Made by a program: the position numbers and the translations under genes
Assembly: GCA_030645735.1 (NCBI GenBank)
Contig: JAUSNP010000006.1
Coordinates: 68,095 to 132,094 of the forward strand
DNA: 64,000 bases
Direction of reading: 5' to 3'
Source of the DNA: Candidatus Moraniibacteriota bacterium
Lineage (GTDB): Bacteria > Patescibacteriota > Minisyncoccia > Moranbacterales > UBA2206
Shown: in pieces, positions 40 to 54,094 of the stretch
How positions within the stretch are numbered: position 1 is the first letter of the stretch
How the letters are laid out: every line of letters starts with the position of its first letter
The notes under the pieces: generated by a model
Database searches by the model: none
Seen by the model: the letters and a program-made list of their open reading frames with translations, nothing else
What the model was told of the DNA's origin: nothing

Positions 40-933
40 ATGATTGGAGAATTTAATGGACTACAAGGAGGTGAGATAATAAAAAAGACTGAATCGGTGT
101 ATACGGCTGATCAGCTTTTGAAAATTAAAAAATATGAACAATGGATTGCAGATATGCAAAATCAGGAAGCTAGGGATGTAGAAAGTCAAAATGAAACGGA
201 CGAGGATGAAGAAGATAATCAAATAGATGTAGCGGAAGATTCTCAATGGCAAGATCATGAATTGGTCGATAAGTCATATCCGGAATACGACGCACGTAGA
301 TGGATAAAACTTGTTGAAAGTGAAAATAGGGATACCGTAGCGCAATACTATAATAATCTTGGATTGTCAGATGAGATGCTTTCGCAAAAAGAAAGAATTC
401 TTGACATTGGTTCAAATATGGCTGATTTCGCAGCACATTGCAAAGCGCAAGGAATTAATAATGAAGTTATTTCACTCGAGCCTGAACTAATGAATCATCC
501 TGGAATTGAAGCGGCTCAAAAAATGTATTTAGGTGATGAGTTGTGTGATTATATTAAAAGTAGAACAGTTTCTGGGGTTATGGAAAAATTGCCATTTAAA
601 GATGCCTCAATTGATTTGATCGTTAATCATGCGGCTATGCCAGGGTTCAATCATTCTATGTATAGAATTGAAGAGATGAAAGAAAGTGTTAATGATGCGT
701 TCGATGAAATTATCCGAGTCCTTAAAATTGGCGGAGAAGCTAGAATGTTTCCCTTACCTGATTCAATAGGTGAGCGATCTCAGTGGCGACCAGCCATTGA
801 TAGAAAATTATCTGAGATGGAAAAGGCTGGAATATGTAGTTTTAGAATCGAAGATGTTGCTAGTTCAGAAACCGGAGGATTATTGGGTAAAAGAGTTATT
901 GTGAAAAAAGTTAAGGAATTTCTGGAAATTTAG
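40..933 (+). CDS. hypothetical protein, possible class I SAM-dependent methyltransferase fold
   Basis: 297-aa ORF. The segment ILDIGSNMADFAAHC resembles methyltransferase motif I, and the N-terminal region is acidic. Confidence 0.4.
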   Translation: MIGEFNGLQGGEIIKKTESVYTADQLLKIKKYEQWIADMQNQEARDVESQNETDEDEEDNQIDVAEDSQWQDHELVDKSYPEYDARRWIKLVESENRDTVAQYYNNLGLSDEMLSQKERILDIGSNMADFAAHCKAQGINNEVISLEPELMNHPGIEAAQKMYLGDELCDYIKSRTVSGVMEKLPFKDASIDLIVNHAAMPGFNHSMYRIEEMKESVNDAFDEIIRVLKIGGEARMFPLPDSIGERSQWRPAIDRKLSEMEKAGICSFRIEDVASSETGGLLGKRVIVKKVKEFLEI

Positions 934-44711: not shown

Positions 44712-46283
44712 ATGAAAACCAATAAAAAAATCGTGGGGGCGATGACAGTTTTTGTCATGTCTTTTGCAGTTACGAGTGCAACTTGCTCAGCAGAGGATGT
44801 TGTGACTACGGATGTGGCAGTAAATAATATTGCGAGTAATGCCGGCATCTCATATAGTAGACTCAATCTAACGGATAAAATCGTTTCATCTGATATTAAA
44901 AACAGCACAATCACAGGAGCTGATATTAAACGGGGTGCTGTGAGTAGTGGGGATATAAAAAATCGAACTATTGCTTCAATTGATATCGAAAAAGGAGCCA
45001 TTAAAAGTGGTAGCATTGCAGATGATTCTATAGGTAATGATAAATTGAAAGAAGATGCTGTAACTTCGGATAAGATTCAAGACGGCGCAATCGTAACTGG
45101 AGACATTGCAACTGACACTATTTTGGCAGGCAACATTGCGACTGGCGCAATTGGCACAGCTGAAATTCTGGATGGCACGATTCTGGATGCTGACATTAGT
45201 CCTGCTGCAGCCATTGCTTATAGCAAATTACTGTTTGCTAATAATATAGTTGCTGGAGATATCGCAACTGGGGCTGTTGCCACAGATGAAATTCTAGATG
45301 GAACAATTTTGACTGGAGACATTGCTGCCGACACTATTTTAGCAGGCAACATTGCGACTGGGGCAATCGGCACAGCTGAAATTTTAGATGGTACGATTTT
45401 AGGAAGCGACATTGCCAATACTACTATTGCCGCAGCTAATATAGTGGCTGACACTATTGACGGAGCTCAGCTAGCTGACACGATCACATTAGATGCTAAT
45501 CTAGTTTTGAATGGCGCCAATGTGACCGGTAATGGCACTCTTGGTGAAGTTGGCTCGCGTTGGTCAACAATTTATGCTGACACTTTGAATTATTCAAGCG
45601 CTATTGCAGATGATAATTCAGCCAACACAACTGTTGCTTTCGGAGATAATAGCACAAGTGATGCAGTGAATATTACAGCTAATACAACCATTACTGATGC
45701 GGAATGGTCAATTTCGAATGCAGGTGTTGCCACATTTGCTTCGATAGACGGTGTTGTTGGGTCAATAACTCCTGCCGCTGGTTCATTTACGACACTCTCG
45801 GCGACAGGCGCGTTGACAACTGGTGACATCACTGCTTATGGTGCAACTGCAAATAATAACCTAACTGTTAATGGCAAAGGAACTGGCAGTGTGAATTTGG
45901 GTGATGCGGATAGTGACGTTTCAGTTATAAATGCTTTGACGATTGGAAATAGCGCCACCATTACTGCTGGCGGATTGATAATTACAGCTGGTGGGTTGGA
46001 TATGACTGGCGATTCCATAACCAATGTTACGCAAGTCGGTGATTCCAATGATAATTTGGCAATTACAGGTGATGACTGGGATGTTACAAATGGTGGAGTT
46101 GCTACATTTAAAGGTTTGACTTCGACTAGCGCTGTTGATTTAGATGGGGCATCTTCAGTTAGTGTGCCAGCTGCGACATTGGGCGGGGCATGCTCAGTTT
46201 CTGGTGCAATTGGTGTCAATCCAGCTGGAAATGCAGGTGAGAGAATAATGGTTTGTAATGGAGCTAATTGGTTGGCAAATTAA
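44712..46283 (+). CDS. secreted repeat protein (probable beta-helical surface protein/adhesin) with C-terminal Cys loop
   Basis: Signal peptide. Dozens of ~10-aa x-I-x-x-G-D-I-x-x-x repeats. Internal ~105-bp tandem DNA repeats at 45098-45414. C-terminal CSVSGAIGVNPAGNAGERIMVCNGANW. Confidence 0.55.
   Translation: MKTNKKIVGAMTVFVMSFAVTSATCSAEDVVTTDVAVNNIASNAGISYSRLNLTDKIVSSDIKNSTITGADIKRGAVSSGDIKNRTIASIDIEKGAIKSGSIADDSIGNDKLKEDAVTSDKIQDGAIVTGDIATDTILAGNIATGAIGTAEILDGTILDADISPAAAIAYSKLLFANNIVAGDIATGAVATDEILDGTILTGDIAADTILAGNIATGAIGTAEILDGTILGSDIANTTIAAANIVADTIDGAQLADTITLDANLVLNGANVTGNGTLGEVGSRWSTIYADTLNYSSAIADDNSANTTVAFGDNSTSDAVNITANTTITDAEWSISNAGVATFASIDGVVGSITPAAGSFTTLSATGALTTGDITAYGATANNNLTVNGKGTGSVNLGDADSDVSVINALTIGNSATITAGGLIITAGGLDMTGDSITNVTQVGDSNDNLAITGDDWDVTNGGVATFKGLTSTSAVDLDGASSVSVPAATLGGACSVSGAIGVNPAGNAGERIMVCNGANWLAN
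45098..45414 (+). repeat. intragenic tandem repeats (~105-bp units, about 3 copies) inside the surface repeat protein gene
   Basis: 45098-45200 and 45311-45414 are about 88% identical, and the middle unit has diverged. Confidence 0.7.
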
Positions 46284-48424: not shown

Positions 48425-48432
48425 AACAACAT

Positions 48433-48468
48433 AGAGACGCCCCGCCGGGGCGTCTCTACGGGGAGACG
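48433..48468 (+). promoter_or_regulatory. GC-rich overlapping alternative hairpins upstream of secD
   Basis: AGAGACGCCCCGCCGGGGCGTCTCT forms an 11-bp stem. Its 3' arm CGTCTC can alternatively pair with the downstream GAGACG. Confidence 0.35.
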
Positions 48469-48506
48469 TTGCCATGTTTACCGGTATAATGTAAAATAAA
48501 CATACT

Positions 48507-50207
48507 ATGACATTCAAACAAAAACTTTCAATTAAATTTGCATCAGTGATTTTGATGGCTCTTATGGCGGGGCTTATTTCCTATCCCAAGGCGGTTTCCA
48601 AAATTCCGCCAGTTTATAATGCCTTGAATAAGCTAAAAATAAATCTTGGGTTGGATTTGCAAGGCGGGATCCATTTGGAATATAAGGCTGACACAAGCAA
48701 AATTGAAAGTGGCAAGGTGGATGAGGCTATGCAGGCTGTGCAAGATGTGATTGAAAGACGCGTCAATGCATTTGGTGTGGCTGAGCCAGTGATTTATACA
48801 ACCAAATCTGGCACGGAAAGGCGATTGATCGTTGAATTGGCGGGTGTGAAAGATATCTCTCAGGCCAAAAATTTGATCAAAGAAACTCCATTTTTGGAAT
48901 TCAAAGAAGAAGGAGCGCCGGACACATCTAAGGATATTCCACAAGAGTTTTTGGATAAGATGAATGTGCAAGCTAAGCAAAAAGCGGAAGATCTTTTGAA
49001 AAAGGCTTTGGCAGGAGAAGACTTCGCTCAATTGGCTAAAGACAATAGTGAGGATCCAGGGAGTAAGGATAACGGCGGTGATTTAGACTTTGTGAAAAAA
49101 GGTGCTTTTGTGCCAGAATTTGATAAAGTTTTGTTCGAAGGCAATTTGAAAGACGGAGAAATCAATAGTCAGTTAGTGGAAACACAATTTGGTTGGCATA
49201 TTATTAAAAAAATTGAACAGCGCGGTGAAGGCGATGGTTTGGAAGTCCATGGTGCGCACATCTTGATTGCCAAAAAAAGCAACCCCGCTCCGCAGCAAAG
49301 CTATGTGGCCACTGGTCTTTCTGGCAAAAATTTGAAAAGCGCCACAGTTGAATTTCAAAGTCAGGGACTTTCAGAGCCACAAGTGTCTTTGAAATTTGAT
49401 GATGAGGGGACTCAGATGTTTGCTGATTTGACCAAGAAAAATATTGGTAAAAGTGTCGCAATATATCTGGATGGAAAAATTATTAGCGCGCCAACTGTGC
49501 AGGCTGAAATTACTACTGGTGAAGCGGTGATTACAGGAAACTTCTCAATTGATGAAGCGAAAAATTTAGTTAAAAAATTGAATGAAGGTGCACTTCCTGT
49601 GCCAATCAATTTGATTAGTCAGGAAAGTGTGGATGCCTCATTGGGAGGTGCCTCATTGGAAACTAGTTTGAAGGCTGGCTATATTGGTTTGGGATTAGTT
49701 GTGATTTTTATGCTACTTTATTATCGCTTCCTTGGACTCATCGCTTCAGTGGCCTTGCTTATTTATGCGGGGCTGATGATTTCTATTTTCAAACTTTCTA
49801 GTTTTACTCCTTGGCAAATCACCCTGACTCTGCCTGGTATTGCGGGATTTATTTTGTCGATTGGTATGGCAGTGGATGCTAATATTTTGATTTTCGAAAG
49901 AACCAAGGAGGAAATTCGCAAAGGACGCAGTATTTTAGGAGCCTTGGATGAAGGTTTCAAACGCGCTTGGACATCAATTCGCGATGGAAATCTCTCTTCA
50001 ATTATCACATCTGTGATTTTGATTGAACTTGGAACTGGATTTGTAAAAGGTTTCGCGGTGACTTTGATTGTTGGAGTTTTGCTTTCCATGTTTACAGCCG
50101 TAGTAGTTTCCCGCACGATGTTGAAGTTCATTCTCGGCGAATGGATTTTGGACAAATTGTGGCTGGTTGGCGTGAACAAAAAAGATGTCGCTGAAATTAA
50201 AAAATAA
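48507..50207 (+). CDS. secD: protein translocase subunit SecD with an embedded parvulin-type PPIase domain
   Basis: TM1, then the parvulin-like segment EDFAQLAKDNSEDPGSKDNGGDLDFVKKGAFVPEFDKVLF...SQLVETQFGWHIIK, then the canonical SecD P1 head (IYLDGKIISAPTVQAEITTGEAVITGNF) and six C-terminal TM helices. Confidence 0.9.
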   Translation: MTFKQKLSIKFASVILMALMAGLISYPKAVSKIPPVYNALNKLKINLGLDLQGGIHLEYKADTSKIESGKVDEAMQAVQDVIERRVNAFGVAEPVIYTTKSGTERRLIVELAGVKDISQAKNLIKETPFLEFKEEGAPDTSKDIPQEFLDKMNVQAKQKAEDLLKKALAGEDFAQLAKDNSEDPGSKDNGGDLDFVKKGAFVPEFDKVLFEGNLKDGEINSQLVETQFGWHIIKKIEQRGEGDGLEVHGAHILIAKKSNPAPQQSYVATGLSGKNLKSATVEFQSQGLSEPQVSLKFDDEGTQMFADLTKKNIGKSVAIYLDGKIISAPTVQAEITTGEAVITGNFSIDEAKNLVKKLNEGALPVPINLISQESVDASLGGASLETSLKAGYIGLGLVVIFMLLYYRFLGLIASVALLIYAGLMISIFKLSSFTPWQITLTLPGIAGFILSIGMAVDANILIFERTKEEIRKGRSILGALDEGFKRAWTSIRDGNLSSIITSVILIELGTGFVKGFAVTLIVGVLLSMFTAVVVSRTMLKFILGEWILDKLWLVGVNKKDVAEIKK

Positions 50208-50296: not shown

Positions 50297-51196
50297 ATGT
50301 TTAATATTATTTCCAAAACTAAATACGCATACATCTTCTCAATAACTTTGACGGTTTTGAGCGTGGCTAGTCTGGCTGTGTGGGGATTGAAGTTCGGCAT
50401 TGATTTCACAGGTGGAACAGTGATGGAAATCAAATTTGCCAATACGATGCCGGCCAATCAAGAAATTGTTGATACATTGAAGGATTTGAATTTGAACAGC
50501 TTGACCGTGCAAGGCAAGGGAACCGAATCATTGCTTCTAAGCTATGCCTCAGTGGATGACAGTATCAATCAAAATGTTTGGAAAACTATCAGTGATAAAT
50601 ATCCAGAATCAACTCAGCTCAAGGCTGACTATCGTGACTCATCTGTTTCATCTGAATTGAAAACTAAATCACTTTGGGCACTGTTTTGGGCAGCCGCTGG
50701 TATCATGGCTTTCATTGCGTGGGCTTTTCGCAAGGTTTCCCGACCAGTTGCGTCTTGGAAATATGGCGCAGGTGCAGTAATTGCGCTTTTGCATGATGTT
50801 CTGATTACAATTGGCGCTTTCTCAATTCTAGGTCATTTCCAGGGAGTTGAAGTGGGAATTCCATTTATTGCTGCTTTGTTAACAATCCTTGGATTTTCGG
50901 TGCATGACACGATTGTAGTGTATGATCGCACGCGTGAAAATCTTTTGAAAGGTTCAGCCAAAGAAGCTTTTCCGGATGTGGTCAATCGCAGTTTGAATGA
51001 AACATTGGTGCGTTCCATCAACACTTCAATGACTGTAATCATCACCCTGTTGTCACTCTACATTTTTGGAGGTGAATCAATCAAGGACTTTGCTTTGGCT
51101 CTTTTGATTGGTGTATCATTCGGGACATATTCATCCGTCTTCATCGCTTCGGCGTTGTTGGTGACGAGTTATGAAATGCAATTGAAAAATAAATAA
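50297..51196 (+). CDS. secF: protein translocase subunit SecF
   Basis: GIDFTGGTVMEIKF, with a 6-TM SecF profile. Confidence 0.9.
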   Translation: MFNIISKTKYAYIFSITLTVLSVASLAVWGLKFGIDFTGGTVMEIKFANTMPANQEIVDTLKDLNLNSLTVQGKGTESLLLSYASVDDSINQNVWKTISDKYPESTQLKADYRDSSVSSELKTKSLWALFWAAAGIMAFIAWAFRKVSRPVASWKYGAGAVIALLHDVLITIGAFSILGHFQGVEVGIPFIAALLTILGFSVHDTIVVYDRTRENLLKGSAKEAFPDVVNRSLNETLVRSINTSMTVIITLLSLYIFGGESIKDFALALLIGVSFGTYSSVFIASALLVTSYEMQLKNK

Positions 51197-51232: not shown

Positions 51233-51487
51233 ATGTGGAATCCATTCAAAAAAAATTCAGCTAACGATGATGATGCTGACGCCAAAAGTCCCAAGATGGG
51301 TATGATGCAAGCGATGGCAATGAAAAAAATGGCCAAGATGAGTCCGCAAGAGCGTCAGAAAATGATGCAAGAAGCTATGAAGCCAGAAAATCGCGACAAA
51401 ATCATGGGTGTGATGAGTGCCATGAAAGCCTCCGGCCAAGTGACCGACGAACAAATCGCACAAGCCAAGAAAATGTTAGGAATGTAA
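51233..51487 (+). CDS. Met-rich small protein (hypothetical)
   Basis: 84 aa, about 20% Met (MGMMQAMAMKKMAKM...KMMQEAMK). Confidence 0.4.
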   Translation: MWNPFKKNSANDDDADAKSPKMGMMQAMAMKKMAKMSPQERQKMMQEAMKPENRDKIMGVMSAMKASGQVTDEQIAQAKKMLGM

Positions 51488-51495
51488 AAATATTT

Positions 51496-51924
51496 ATGGG
51501 AAATCCTTTTGAAAGAGCTGTCGAAGAGCCGAAAAAACGAGATGAAATGCTCGAGGATTTTTTAGTTGATGTTGAAGGGATTTTTGATGGTTTGATAAAT
51601 GGTGTTGACAAGAGTGTTTTGCGAAGAAAGTTTGGTAGATTCTTTGAAGAAAGTAAAAAAGAAAAGGTTGATTTTAATTTTGCACAAAACCTAATGGAAG
51701 CAAATGCTCGTCTTTGTGAATGGCTGGAACAAGGAGGTCTAGAAGTAGAAATGAAAGTTAAACATGGCGGTCTGGAAAATGCTTACTACGAAGAAGATCT
51801 TAATCAAAGTAAAATATCTGCAATTCATGCTTCAGTAGAAACATTTATTGCAGATTATGTTGGAAAAATAGAGAGAATTAAAAAACTAAAAGAGTTGGCG
51901 GAAAAGATAAAATCAGAAGAATAG
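51496..51924 (+). CDS. hypothetical protein
   Basis: 142-aa acidic ORF. Confidence 0.45.
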   Translation: MGNPFERAVEEPKKRDEMLEDFLVDVEGIFDGLINGVDKSVLRRKFGRFFEESKKEKVDFNFAQNLMEANARLCEWLEQGGLEVEMKVKHGGLENAYYEEDLNQSKISAIHASVETFIADYVGKIERIKKLKELAEKIKSEE

Positions 51925-51962: not shown

Positions 51963-51988
51963 TCCCAGCTTATTTAGCTGGTTTTTTG
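51963..51988 (+). terminator. rho-independent terminator
   Basis: CCAGCTTATTTAGCTGG followed by TTTTTTG. Confidence 0.65.
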
Positions 51989-52013
51989 ATGGGTTAACGA
52001 CATTTTGGTTTTG

Positions 52014-52022
52014 TGCTATAAT
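52014..52022 (+). promoter_or_regulatory. extended -10 promoter TGcTATAAT ending 6 nt before ATG 52029 (likely leaderless por mRNA)
   Basis: TGCTATAAT at 52014-52022 and ATG at 52029. Confidence 0.5.
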
Positions 52023-52028
52023 ACATTT

Positions 52029-52610
52029 ATGAAATATCATAAAGACATATTTGAAATAATTTTCCATGCGCGAGGTGGGCAGGGTGCCAAGACGGCAGCC
52101 GAGATCATCGCACAGGCGGCGGTGAACGAAGGCAAATTCGTGCAGGCTTTTCCGCAATTCGGACCAGAGCGCAGTGGTGCCCCAACCAAGACCTTTGTGC
52201 GCATTTCTGACCATGAAATCAGGACTCACGAGCCAGTGATTGATCCGGATGTAGTGGTGGTTTTGGATGAAACTATTTTGGATTCTGAAATTGTCACAAC
52301 CAATCTCGATCGTCATGAATCCTTGATTGTGGCCACCAAAAAGACTGATATGCAAATCCGCCACAAGATTGCTGAGCGAGCCAAATTTGAAGGCAAGATT
52401 CATCCAATTGATGCCAATGGCATTTCCATGGAAATTGTGGGTCAACCAAGACCCAACACGGTGATTCTTGGCAAATTCGTGCAAGTGACGGAAATCGTGG
52501 AATTGAAAAGTGTGATTGAGGAATTCAAAAGAATTTTTGGTGACAAAATTGGCAAAGAAGCGACTGATAAAAATATATTAGCTATTGAAAAAGCATATGA
52601 CTCAATCTAG
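52029..52610 (+). CDS. porC: pyruvate/2-oxoacid:ferredoxin oxidoreductase gamma subunit
   Basis: IFHARGGQGAKTAAEIIAQAA...FPQFGPERSGAP is the POR gamma signature. Confidence 0.85.
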   Translation: MKYHKDIFEIIFHARGGQGAKTAAEIIAQAAVNEGKFVQAFPQFGPERSGAPTKTFVRISDHEIRTHEPVIDPDVVVVLDETILDSEIVTTNLDRHESLIVATKKTDMQIRHKIAERAKFEGKIHPIDANGISMEIVGQPRPNTVILGKFVQVTEIVELKSVIEEFKRIFGDKIGKEATDKNILAIEKAYDSI

Positions 52611-52905
52611 TGAAAAAAAATTTGATTTTGAAGAAGCGGCGGTCATCAAACATGACATCAAAAAGGCACCCAAAACCGGTGACTGGCGTTATATGACTCC
52701 GCAAGTGGACAAAGAAAAATGCATCGGTTGCACGACTTGTGTGCCGTTTTGTCCGGATGCTGCGATTGAAATGGAAAGTCGTGGAACGCAAAACGTGGAA
52801 CGCAAAACGCGTTATGCGAAAATTGATTATGATTTCTGCAAGGGTTGTGGTGTTTGCGCGCAAGTGTGTCCGGTCAAAGCAATTGCAATGGAGAAAAATA
52901 AATAA
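52597..52905 (+). CDS. porD: POR delta subunit (2x[4Fe-4S] ferredoxin)
   Basis: CIGCTTCVPFCP and CKGCGVCAQVCP. Confidence 0.8.
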   Translation: MTQSSEKKFDFEEAAVIKHDIKKAPKTGDWRYMTPQVDKEKCIGCTTCVPFCPDAAIEMESRGTQNVERKTRYAKIDYDFCKGCGVCAQVCPVKAIAMEKNK

Positions 52906-52924
52906 TTCGACCAAGAAGATTCGT

Positions 52925-54094
52925 ATGATCTACAAGACAAATAAAAATAGAATAGCTTTAACTGGTGGCGCAGCAGCGGCGGAGGCTTTGAAGCAGATTG
53001 AACCAGACGTGATGGCAGTCTATCCAATCACTCCGCAAACCACTATCATCGAAACTTTTGCCAAGTTCAAGGCAGATGGGGAAGTGGCTACAGAAGTGAT
53101 TGAAGTTGAATCAGAGCATTCAGCTATTTCAGCTTGTGTTGGTTCGAGTGCAGCTGGTGCAAGAACTGTGACGGCGACCAGCTCACAAGGTCTGGCTTTG
53201 ATGAATGAAATTTTATACATTGCTAGTGGCATGCGCTTGCCAATTTTGATGGTGGTGTCAGCCCGCGCTTTGAGCGCGCCACTCAACATTCACGGTGATC
53301 ATTCAGACGTGATGGGCGCGCGCGACACGGGTTGGATTCAAATCTTTTCTGAAAATGCGCAAGAGATTTATGACAACACAATTATTGGTATGAAATTGGC
53401 GGAGAAAGTTAAATTGCCAGTGATGGCGATTATGGATGGTTTCAACACTTCTCACTGTGTGGAAAATTTGGAAATGCTGTCGATTGAACAGGTCAGAGAA
53501 TTTGTGGGTGAATTTACGCCAGAAAAATATCTGCTCGACATTGCCAACCCAGTTTCTTTCGGGCCAGTAGCTTTGCAAAATTCATATTTTGAATTCAAAG
53601 TTCAGCAGGAAAATGCTATGGACAAAGTGGCGCGAGAATATTTGAAAATTGCCAAAGAATTTGAAAAATTGACCGGACGTAAAAAAGATTTCTTTGAGAG
53701 CTATCAAACTGAAGATGCCGAAGAAGTCATCATTTTGGCTGGTTCAACGGCTGGCACAACTAAAGATGTGATTGATCGAATGCGCAAGCATGGCAAAAAA
53801 GTCGGGCTCATCAAAATGAGCTTGTTCCGACCATTTCCAAGAAAAGAATTGTTGGTGGCTTTGAAAAATGCCAAAAGCGTGGCAGTGATGGAGCGGGCAA
53901 TTTCTTCAGGAACCTACCCGCCAATCTATCAAGACATTATGACTGGGCTTTTCCAAGCTGGTGAAACCAAAAACATGCAATCAATCATTTACAGTTTGGG
54001 TGGACGGGACATTTTCGCCAAGGATATTGAGAAGATTTTTGACGATTTGCATGCTGGAAAAATTTCCAAAGAGACTAAGTATATAGGAGTATAA
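52925..54094 (+). CDS. porA: POR alpha subunit
   Basis: ALTGGAAAAEALKQIEPDVMAVYPITPQT. ATG 52925 is used because the track ORF extension back to 52739 overlaps porD. Confidence 0.85.
   Translation: MIYKTNKNRIALTGGAAAAEALKQIEPDVMAVYPITPQTTIIETFAKFKADGEVATEVIEVESEHSAISACVGSSAAGARTVTATSSQGLALMNEILYIASGMRLPILMVVSARALSAPLNIHGDHSDVMGARDTGWIQIFSENAQEIYDNTIIGMKLAEKVKLPVMAIMDGFNTSHCVENLEMLSIEQVREFVGEFTPEKYLLDIANPVSFGPVALQNSYFEFKVQQENAMDKVAREYLKIAKEFEKLTGRKKDFFESYQTEDAEEVIILAGSTAGTTKDVIDRMRKHGKKVGLIKMSLFRPFPRKELLVALKNAKSVAVMERAISSGTYPPIYQDIMTGLFQAGETKNMQSIIYSLGGRDIFAKDIEKIFDDLHAGKISKETKYIGV

Follow-up and report, generated by a model that had tools for sequence, protein, structure and literature searches.

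The question raised by this locus is whether a SecD protein can carry a peptidyl-prolyl isomerase (PPIase) of the parvulin type inside its own P1 domain, and what such a domain would do there. SecD is a PMF-driven accessory subunit of the Sec system. The gene analyzed here belongs to a metagenome-assembled Candidatus Moranbacteria genome and lies within a stretch of 64,000 nucleotides, which we refer to as the window. We found that residues 146-255 of the encoded SecD are a parvulin/PpiC domain, situated between a strand of the P1 base and the P1-head subdomain. The explanation that we regard as probable is that a working-type SecD, paired with SecF, acquired within P1 a circularly permuted parvulin PPIase domain, which would aid the folding of exported proteins.

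Profile searches identified the host protein as SecD: its TIGR01129 score of 384.5 bits is above the curated family cut-off of 244.4, as are the scores for PF22599 (108.4 versus 27), PF21760 (59.9 versus 27) and PF02355 (40.1 versus 20.5). The Pfam matches follow one another in the order Sec_GG (residues 44-64), SecD_1st, which represents the P1 base (75-134), the Rotamase match, SecDF_P1_head (269-365) and SecD_SecF_C (367-542). The secondary structure of the AF2 model showed TM1, a large extracytoplasmic P1 region made up of base and head, and a five-helix bundle with a transmembrane Asp; the strand FLEFKEE (130-136 in the model) closes the N-terminal part of the base. Based on the position of TM1 and on topology by homology to SecDF structures, the protein is predicted to lie outside the cytoplasmic membrane up to approximately residue 375. 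The conserved transmembrane Asp of SecDF has a role in proton conduction, and Asp457 of the ‘AVDANI’ motif in the TM2-TM6 bundle was invariant among 80 homologues. The partner gene secF stands beside secD here and in 12 related loci (L001-L015), and a SecD annotated by NCBI as that of a ‘Candidatus Moranbacteria bacterium’ (P0001) is identical to the SecD of the window. The features of the locus are collected in Table 1.

Table 1. Features of the secD locus, with positions in the window and the basis for each assignment.
Feature	Position	Strand	Basis
Promoter-like site TTGCCA, 17-nt spacer, TAAAAT	48469..48497	+	Consensus scan only, 10/12 matches; 10 nt upstream of secD start
secD, 566 aa, with embedded parvulin domain	48507..50207	+	TIGR01129 and Pfam profiles
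TM1, ~residues 7-27, LSIKFASVILMALMAGLISYP	48525..48587	+	AF2 helix 3-25; topology from SecDF homology
P1 base, N-terminal part, SecD_1st residues 75-134	48729..48914	+	Pfam; alignment to Thermus SecDF 30-125
Entry linker GAPDTSKDI, residues 137-145	48915..48941	+	Coil in both AF2 models; variable among homologues
Parvulin core, helix 1 to strand 4, residues 146-239	48942..49223	+	PF13616 positions 33-115 of 116 only; PDB matches
Hairpin loop GEGDGL, residues 240-245	49224..49241	+	Between strands 229-239 and 246-255 by DSSP, both models
Trailing strand EVHGAHILIA with H251, residues 246-255	49242..49271	+	Alignment to SurA P2 strand 1; AF2
Exit linker KKSNPAPQQ, residues 256-264	49272..49298	+	Coil in models
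P1 head subdomain, residues 265-366	49299..49604	+	PF22599 E 2.4e-31 (269-365); aligns with Thermus SecDF from 160
TM2-TM6 bundle, residues 367-545	49605..50141	+	PF02355; invariant columns
secF, 299 aa, partner subunit	50297..51196	+	TIGR00966 269.7 bits, cut-off 160
Met-rich 84-aa ORF (16 Met), directly after secF	51233..51487	+	Conserved; no Pfam/NCBIfam match
Terminator-like hairpin and T-run, after ORF 51496-51924	51965..51991	+	Consensus scan only

The earlier note had described a Met-rich protein of 84 aa after secF and had remarked that no yajC stands beside secDF, and both observations held. The Met-rich ORF had 70 homologues, the named ones being hypothetical proteins of Moranbacteria or Patescibacteria, and matched nothing in Pfam or NCBIfam. 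It occupies the same place after secF in locus L001, and for many of its homologues the listed length of the longest contig equals that given for SecD homologues, suggesting shared contigs. YajC, the third subunit of E. coli SecDF-YajC, is a small single-TM protein (PF02699). Pfam gave zero matches for the four small neighboring ORFs, and E. coli YajC, used as a phmmer query against all 502 ORFs of the 64-kb window that are 35 aa or longer, gave a best E value of 0.5, which for so tiny a protein is a weak test. A secD-secF-ORF84-ORF142 transcription unit likely ends at the predicted terminator-like hairpin.

A parvulin domain had been placed at nucleotides 48960-49260, corresponding to SecD residues 152-252, and the sequence quoted for it is indeed present in the secD ORF. 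Profile searches strongly supported the proposed PpiC domain: Rotamase_3 (PF13616) matched residues 153-238 (E 6.1e-25; 88.5 bits versus a cut-off of 22.5), Rotamase (PF00639) matched residues 150-236 (E 2.3e-21; 77.0 bits versus 21.7), and the originally flagged stretch of 100 aa, when scored alone against Pfam, gave an E value of 5.5e-26, which is far above the chance level. In agreement with these results, the NCBIfam models of PrsA, PpiC and SurA matched the parvulin residues only, with scores far below their own cut-offs, and sequence matches of the insert in the PDB were to SurA P2, PrsA and PpiC (E 1e-15 to 1e-10). The likeness to PrsA, SurA and PpiD that had been proposed applies to the parvulin module; it does not extend to an N/C chaperone domain or to the canonical strand order. 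Pfam detected no SurA_N-like or trigger-factor-like chaperone domain in SecD, where P1 segments flank the parvulin directly, and thus the parvulin module alone is held in common with these proteins.

The insert is foreign to the P1 domain of ordinary SecD. The parvulin segment matched none of the solved SecD/SecDF chains in the PDB, and an ordinary SecD feature was rejected on this basis; in related SecDs that lack the insert, the site holds a variable linker only. Thermus SecDF (3aqp) aligned in two blocks, query residues 42-140 with chain residues 30-125 and query residues 271-554 with chain residues 160-438, so that ~130 query residues stand against ~35 in Thermus and the net insert amounts to ~100 aa. 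This net length agrees with the insert of about 100 residues claimed at the outset; the domain itself is longer than its motifs had implied and includes the trailing strand. The alignment to Deinococcus SecDF (5xan) was likewise interrupted at the insert, and E. coli SecD (5mg3_D) gave one aligned stretch only, starting at query residue 266.

A survey of related SecDs for the insert, as had been suggested, uncovered a large family across the candidate phyla radiation (CPR)/Patescibacteria rather than a peculiarity of one genome. All of the 120 closest homologues (72-100% identity) keep the insert, and approximately 95 of the best 150 representatives of 50%-identity clusters have a parvulin core, or two of them, in this position. 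The carriers with a group name belong to the Moranbacteria, Uhrbacteria, Magasanikbacteria, Parcubacteria and Gracilibacteria, a range that rests in part on the matches listed in a contig scan and is not exhaustive; Pfam confirmed the architecture in named loci of the latter four groups. In that scan, which used one rather general parvulin pattern, SecD fusions made up 13 of the 80 loci listed. The SecD-parvulin fusion is common in CPR bacteria.

The active site of parvulins comprises two His residues, a proline pocket of Met/Phe and, after a GG motif, an Asp or Cys. The embedded domain contains D192 (in GGD), the F201-V-P-E-F205 pocket motif and H231 (in FGWH) in its core, and H251 in its trailing strand. 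From alignments, we take the H231/H251/D192 set to be equivalent to H59/C113/H157 of Pin1 and H8/D41/H84 of Par10. In the homologue alignment, G190, G191, F210 and I252 were invariant, while H231, H251, F201, V202, P203, E204, A250 and L253 were at least 90% conserved, as was the F-V-P-E-F pocket as a whole. Among the 120 closest homologues, which represent the Moranbacteria clade of the window, both His residues were kept in 114, and position 192 was Asp in 92 and Glu in 24 (116 together). Because D192, H231 and H251 are conserved, the SecD parvulin is likely, as judged from sequence, to be an active foldase tethered to the translocon.

The same conservation argues against an alternative that we consider unlikely, in which the embedded parvulin is non-catalytic and would bind peptides or serve as a holdase surface, or else act as a structural wedge modulating how the P1 head swings. 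Its position at the base-head connection, where head movement could be influenced, would suit such a role, and SurA and PpiD offer an established precedent for inactive parvulin domains. Losses of the catalytic residues also occur within the family. Both His residues are gone in a few single-domain relatives (P0140, P0164). Furthermore, many relatives contain a second parvulin core directly after a middle strand that resembles EVHGAHILIA, and in these tandem forms the strand-4 His is gone from the first core in 27/28 cases and the trailing-strand His in 23/26. The family therefore tolerates dead parvulins, and catalysis is not needed in every copy. However, in the tandem forms one core always matched the whole canonical profile and kept its two His residues, an argument for selection on at least one active site in each SecD.

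All fold elements of a parvulin were found in the insert, in an apparently permuted order. In its native order the sequence covers positions 12-96 of 97 in PF00639 and 33-115 of 116 in PF13616, such that positions 1-11 and 1-32, respectively, find no match ahead of helix 1, where the canonical order would have them. When the trailing strand was moved ahead of the core, PF00639 positions 1-96 were covered with a score of 83.0 bits, compared with 79.9-80.5 bits for eight shuffled and one reversed control; for PF13616 the corresponding scores were 95.9 versus 92.2-93.0 bits. This gain of ~3 bits is small, but it exceeded 9/9 of the shuffled or reversed controls. The upstream SecD strand ‘TPFLEFKEE’ was ruled out as parvulin strand 1, as it did not extend the profile match. 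The trailing EVHGAHILIA, on the other side of the core, aligned with strand 1 of SurA P2 (‘EVHARHILLK’), in an alignment that reaches this strand from strand 4 of SurA P1. It appears that the embedded parvulin is circularly permuted, its canonical strand 1 now standing last in the domain. Neither a SecD-parvulin fusion nor a permuted parvulin was found described in a literature search with little coverage of subscription journals.

Modeled alone, the insert, trailing strand included, folded into a single compact domain (AF2 pLDDT 92.9, pTM 0.86), with pLDDT values of 91-99 in the core and ~96 in the trailing strand. On the basis of DSSP, pLDDT and sequence, strand 246-255 is predicted to pair with strands 229-239 and 192-197. 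The full-length SecD model had a pLDDT of 79.5 overall and 83-90 across the insert, and its pTM of 0.45 permits no statement on the packing of the parvulin against the P1 head or base. A Foldseek search of the PDB with this model returned SecDF and RND pumps only (top match SecDF, E 1e-21) and was uninformative for the insert. With the insert model, the best match was the periplasmic PPIase 8hm3/8hm4 (115-116 aligned columns, TM 0.65-0.67, 33-35% identity), and canonical single-domain parvulins were absent among the top matches.

A different account of the trailing strand, which we judge quite unlikely, is that EVHGAHILIA is the vestigial strand 1 of a deleted second parvulin and does not fold back, the insert being an incomplete three-stranded domain with no permutation. 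The second core that follows such a strand in many relatives would fit this account, as would the SurA alignment of the insert, which spans P1 strand 4 and continues into P2 strand 1. The trailing strand of the window is also closer to the middle strand of the tandem forms than to their trailing strand (mean local score 27.0 versus 17.4), and its core is closer to tandem core 2 than to core 1 (pairwise score 141.6 versus 97.2). Since tandem core 2 and the middle strand are functionally constrained elements, these similarity scores are not a reliable guide to ancestry, and the derivation of the single-domain form from core 1 or core 2 by pairwise scores was discarded. A vestige would be expected to drift, yet residues 250-253 of the strand are among the most conserved positions given above. 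AF2 predicts a confident 10-residue strand within the compact domain, the hairpin loop that leads to it is just 6 residues long, and without the trailing strand the sheet would lack its central strand, given that nothing resembling strand 1 stands ahead of helix 1. In addition, the His pairs (strand-4/trailing) of proteins with one detected unit were HH in 142, Hx in 19, xH in 0 and xx in 7, i.e., no single-domain form retains the trailing His after losing that of strand 4; most Hx cases are apparently tandem proteins whose first core went undetected. Likewise, H231A and H251L are found together in two close homologues.

Although the source is a metagenome-assembled genome, an artefact, whether a chimeric assembly or an ORF mis-called such that it joins a parvulin gene to secD, is next to impossible and was rejected: a single ORF without interruption contains the insert in frame, flanked on either side by SecD sequence, and the same architecture recurs in hundreds of independent assemblies (NCBI, JGI, ENA, Logan).

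We infer that the permuted SecD parvulin has PPIase activity and serves in the folding of exported proteins, as a foldase at the translocon exit. Two ~9-residue linkers tether the domain exactly where the P1 base strand (FLEFKEE) connects to the mobile head. H251 on the relocated strand and the strand-4 residue H231 would restore the dual-His site of parvulins, alongside D192 and the proline pocket of F201 and F205. SecYEG would pass unfolded chains to the P1 head, where the fused parvulin would meet them, bind Xaa-Pro segments and speed prolyl isomerisation and folding; it may perhaps also hinder back-sliding of the exported chain. The domain would do in cis the job that PrsA in Gram-positives, PpiD/SurA in E. 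coli and Mpn444 in Mycoplasma do in trans. A bolder version of this mechanism, improbable in our view, is an energy-coupled foldase, in which the parvulin at the hinge is mechanically tied to the PMF-driven swing from the F-form to the I-form. With each proton-driven stroke the chain coming out would be brought to the isomerase and then withdrawn, so that SecDF-parvulin would be powered in a compartment that has no ATP. The tandem relatives would then be nested pairs of dead and live domains, the dead outer permuted parvulin acting as a scaffold and the live canonical parvulin being nested in its hairpin.

A natural, covalent SecD-parvulin fusion is ‘Rosetta-stone’ evidence for parvulin foldases working at the P1 head of SecDF, an interaction supported so far by cross-linking, EM at low resolution and docking with AlphaFold, in E. 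coli and Mycoplasma. With their single membrane and reduced genomes, CPR bacteria may cover extracytoplasmic folding via a foldase built into a translocon accessory subunit. A single SecD-parvulin polypeptide would also be a compact system in which to ask whether prolyl isomerisation is coupled to translocation. Should the circular permutation and the nesting of tandem domains prove true, these would, judging from our literature search, be the first permuted parvulins, and relevant to the evolution and engineering of the parvulin fold.

Compared with known systems, the protein shares with SecDF of Thermus thermophilus, Deinococcus radiodurans and E. coli (3aqp, 5yhf, 5xan, 5mg3) the Sec_GG segment, the P1 base and head, the six-helix RND-like bundle, the conserved transmembrane Asp and an adjacent SecF partner, and secD and secF are separate genes, as in E. 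coli. The difference lies between the base strand and the head, where the gap is ~35 residues in Thermus, or an unrelated stretch, versus a 110-residue parvulin and two linkers here. The Bacteroides fragilis periplasmic PPIase (8hm3/8hm4), whose structure came nearest to the insert model, shares with the insert a sequence order in which strand 4 and a short linker (‘RGD’) are followed by ‘RINTRHILLK’, but it is a soluble, multi-domain chaperone-type protein of 427 aa and lies outside SecD. PrsA of Bacillus and Staphylococcus (4wo7, 6vj6, 2jzv) matched the insert as a parvulin with E values of 1e-13 to 1e-12 and offers a possible analogy, as an extracytoplasmic, membrane-tethered parvulin that acts on Sec substrates in a single-membrane cell. 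However, PrsA is a separate lipoprotein with a canonical-order parvulin set in a dimerising N/C chaperone domain, whereas the SecD insert has no chaperone domain and appears permuted. In E. coli, neither SurA P1 nor the PpiD parvulin is catalytically active, and both proteins work as chaperones mainly through their non-parvulin domains. SurA P2 was the best PDB sequence match of the SecD insert (E 7.7e-15). The contact of SurA and PpiD with the translocon is non-covalent, in contrast to that of the SecD parvulin: SurA binds the holotranslocon, with AlphaFold placing its parvulin domains on the SecDF P1 head (PMC9987972), and SecYEG associates with PpiD-YfgM (PMC9643414). Finally, Mpn444, a parvulin-containing lipoprotein of Mycoplasma pneumoniae, cross-links to SecD (bioRxiv 10.1101/2024.09.05.611430). 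Mpn444/Mpn436 thus resemble the present case in having a parvulin at SecD in a wall-less or single-membrane, genome-reduced bacterium but, unlike the SecD fusion, are separate, very large trimeric surface lipoproteins.

The window protein is a member of the SecD family, and every SecD feature that could be tested was found in it. An NCBI entry, 'protein translocase subunit SecD [Candidatus Moranbacteria bacterium]' (P0001), has the identical sequence, and the window protein scored 384.5 bits against NCBIfam TIGR01129 (secD; cut-off 244.4). The transport parts of SecD and SecF appear intact, with D457 invariant and the motif VYDRTRE in SecF. An earlier note had described a parvulin domain inside SecD, and because residues 152-252 (48960-49260) alone matched Pfam with an E-value of 5.5e-26, this observation is real and far beyond chance. 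Matches to the NCBIfam PrsA, PpiC and SurA models were confined to residues ~149-245.

Features of the secD unit and domains of the encoded protein
Feature	Position	Strand	Remarks
promoter-like site	48469-48497		predicted, ahead of secD
secD	48507-50207	+	ORF, 566 aa
Sec_GG	SecD residues 44-64		Pfam
SecD_1st (P1 base)	SecD residues 75-134		Pfam
Rotamase_3 / Rotamase	SecD residues 153-238 / 150-236		Pfam, E 6.1e-25 / 2.3e-21
SecDF_P1_head	SecD residues 269-365		Pfam
SecD_SecF_C	SecD residues 367-542		Pfam
secF	50297-51196	+	TIGR00966, 269.7 bits
ORF84	51233-51487	+	84 aa, directly 3' of secF
142-aa ORF			after ORF84, same unit
terminator-like hairpin	51965-51981		predicted end of secD unit

Whether ordinary SecD proteins share the insert, a question raised in the earlier note, was addressed by a phmmer search of the window SecD against all PDB chains. 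The match to Thermus SecDF (3aqp) was broken in two (query 42-140 to chain 30-125; query 271-554 to chain 160-438), and the window SecD therefore has ~130 residues in place of ~35. No solved SecD or SecDF chain in the PDB matched the parvulin segment, which hit only SurA, PrsA, PpiC and similar proteins. Where the window SecD has its parvulin, parvulin-less relatives bear a linker between '...LEFKE' and 'W..TgLtGk' that is 5 to >100 residues long and frequently of low complexity. This base-to-head site is tolerant of insertions. Pfam boundaries and AF2 strands (E130-136 and E265-272) place it where the P1 base joins the mobile P1 head, and it may correspond to the 'hinge' described for Thermus SecDF. 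Some parvulin-less homologues (P0160, P0168, P0192, P0204 and others) carry acidic or Ser/Thr-rich low-complexity linkers of up to ~100 aa exactly at this junction, and highly degenerate parvulin-like repeats, not detected by the segment HMM, are found there in P0183, P0194 and P0231.

Score and active-site residues assign the insert to the parvulin family, and it appears to be circularly permuted. In the native order, Pfam matches began at profile position 12 of 97 (PF00639) and 33 of 116 (PF13616), and the alignment showed that parvulin strand 1, which bears the first catalytic His, is missing ahead of helix 1. The last strand, FGWHIIKKIEQ, leads through a 6-residue loop directly into EVHGAHILIA. 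HMMER aligned the insert to SurA from P1 strand 4 via the linker to P2 strand 1 (EVHARHILLK), and this arrangement recurs in the B. fragilis PPIase 8hm4 ('GFHIIQLIEKRGD--RINTRHILLK'). When residues 240-260 were placed ahead of residues 144-240, the re-ordered insert matched PF00639 at positions 1-96 with 83.0 bits and PF13616 at positions 16-115 with 95.9 bits, compared with 79.9-80.5 and 92.2-93.0 bits in controls with the moved segment shuffled (eight times) or reversed (once); none of these controls gained coverage of either profile. The native upstream strand TPFLEFKEE was rejected as strand 1, since it leaves the strand-1 position unfilled. In both full-length and insert-only AF2 models, residues 246-255 form a 10-residue strand immediately after strand 229-239, and the insert-only model (124 aa) is a single confident domain (pLDDT 92.9, pTM 0.86; trailing strand ~96).

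Across 80 homologues, the trailing strand has an invariant I252, and A250, H251 and L253 each reach at least 90% conservation. Of 120 close homologues, 114 have His at both 231 and 251, and two have lost the pair together (H231A with H251L). Among proteins with one detected unit, both His residues were present in 142, only the strand-4 His in 19 and neither in seven, with no case of the strand-4 His lost and the trailing His retained.

Tandem SecDs are ordered as core 1 (no preceding strand), a middle strand 'EVKASHIL(I/V)CY.GA..C', core 2, the trailing strand and the head, and their core 2 matches the complete canonical Pfam profile (positions 1-96). Of 28 first units, 25 combine a non-His core with a His strand, and of 26 last units, 22 combine a His core with a non-His strand. 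The simplest reading would be a live canonical parvulin, made of the middle strand and core 2, that is nested within the hairpin of a degenerate permuted one, which consists of core 1 and the trailing strand. Similarity scores gave no decision on whether the single or the tandem form is ancestral. Tandem carriers (loci L003-L012 and L015; homologues P0127, P0130, P0135, P0151, P0162 and others) belong to Uhrbacteria, Magasanikbacteria, Parcubacteria and Gracilibacteria, and their middle strand has two conserved Cys in addition to the His ('HILICYxGAxxC').

The SecD-parvulin fusion is no artefact and forms a large family. All 120 best matches (72-100% identity) in a 5.8-billion-protein collection (NCBI, JGI, ENA, Logan) have PF00639 and PF13616 plus SecD domains. 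With the P1 region as query, HMMER found 225 proteins at E <= 1e-30 among 1.84 billion 50%-identity representatives, and our own segment HMMs showed that ~95 of the best 150 have a parvulin at the base-to-head site. Four layouts were seen: one core, as in the window SecD (~560-620 aa), two cores (~650-720 aa), longer spacers (780-940 aa) and a SecD-SecF single chain (~1000-1100 aa). Single-chain proteins with the insert (~880-1100 aa; P0140, P0158, P0163, P0170, P0171, P0187, P0201, P0240 and L009:5482-8469) show that it is present in split and fused SecDF genes alike.

The fusion is widespread in CPR, with a distribution that is a lower bound. Carriers among the matches listed (species-representative genomes, full-length proteins) are MAGs named Moranbacteria, Uhrbacteria, Magasanikbacteria, Parcubacteria, Gracilibacteria and Patescibacteria, and Pfam confirmed the architecture in ten species-representative carriers. 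A few are labelled 'Candidatus Binatia', 'Candidatus Eisenbacteria' or 'uncultured Gammaproteobacteria' (L002, L004, L007, L011, L012; P0343, P0344). Taxonomic mislabelling or contaminated bins probably account for these labels, because the SecDs group among those of Patescibacteria, with closest relatives in Patescibacteria, Uhrbacteria and Parcubacteria. L004 has 65% GC.

The earlier remark on a Met-rich 84-aa protein after secF was borne out, and, as also noted there, no yajC was detected beside secDF. ORF84 contains 16 Met and 13 Lys, lacks a TM segment and matched neither Pfam nor NCBIfam. The named members among its 70 homologues are Moranbacteria or Patescibacteria 'hypothetical proteins', and for many of the 70 the longest contig is as long as that given for a SecD homologue, which suggests that the two genes share contigs. 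In the related locus L001, an ORF84 homologue (59% identity) is likewise directly 3' of secF, and this conserved position suggests a link to secDF. Pfam and sequence searches found no yajC in the secD operon or the 64-kb window, which is a weak negative. A 14-bp perfect GC-rich hairpin (CATAGAGACGCCCCGCCGGGGCGTCTCTACG, 48430-48460), scored terminator-like for the minus strand only in a site scan, separates a NUDIX gene from secD. Directly after the secDF unit (52005-54094, +) are genes of ordinary anaerobic metabolism, i.e., pyruvate:ferredoxin oxidoreductase gamma (POR) and delta (4Fe-4S), and a larger downstream ORF. A 523-aa protein (44712-46283, +) with a signal-like N-terminal segment and many short 'GDI/ADI...T' repeats had no match in a Pfam search and is possibly a surface protein.

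SecD topology places the insert outside the cytoplasm, and it has all residues expected of an active parvulin, namely D192 (after GG), the F201-V-P-E-F205 pocket, H231 and H251, which are conserved among homologues. CPR cells have a single membrane, as seen by cryo-EM. The insert is probably a translocon-tethered prolyl isomerase that would help chains exiting SecYEG to fold, acting in cis in a role that separate proteins fill elsewhere. Its main rival, a non-catalytic binding or regulatory module, draws on the dead parvulin copies in relatives but is not favored by the conservation within the clade of the window SecD. As precedents for a tethered isomerase, previous studies showed that SurA binds the SecYEG-SecDF-YidC holotranslocon, with both of its parvulin domains placed on the SecDF P1 head by AlphaFold (PMC9987972), that PpiD-YfgM associates with SecYEG (PMC9643414), and that Mycoplasma SecD cross-links to the parvulin lipoprotein Mpn444 (bioRxiv 10.1101/2024.09.05.611430).

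Pfam matches of these SecDs are precomputed in public databases, where the proteins are annotated plainly as SecD. Neither a covalent SecD-PPIase fusion nor a permuted parvulin turned up in the literature covered, which mostly excluded subscription journals. What is new is the domain fusion together with a probable permutation; for secretion specialists it is noteworthy and experimentally useful, and it builds on existing concepts without overturning any. The likeness to PrsA, SurA and PpiD proposed in the earlier note holds for the parvulin segment itself, but the strand order differs from that of canonical parvulins. Furthermore, the window SecD lies outside these three families, because it has none of their N/C chaperone domain by Pfam or NCBIfam.
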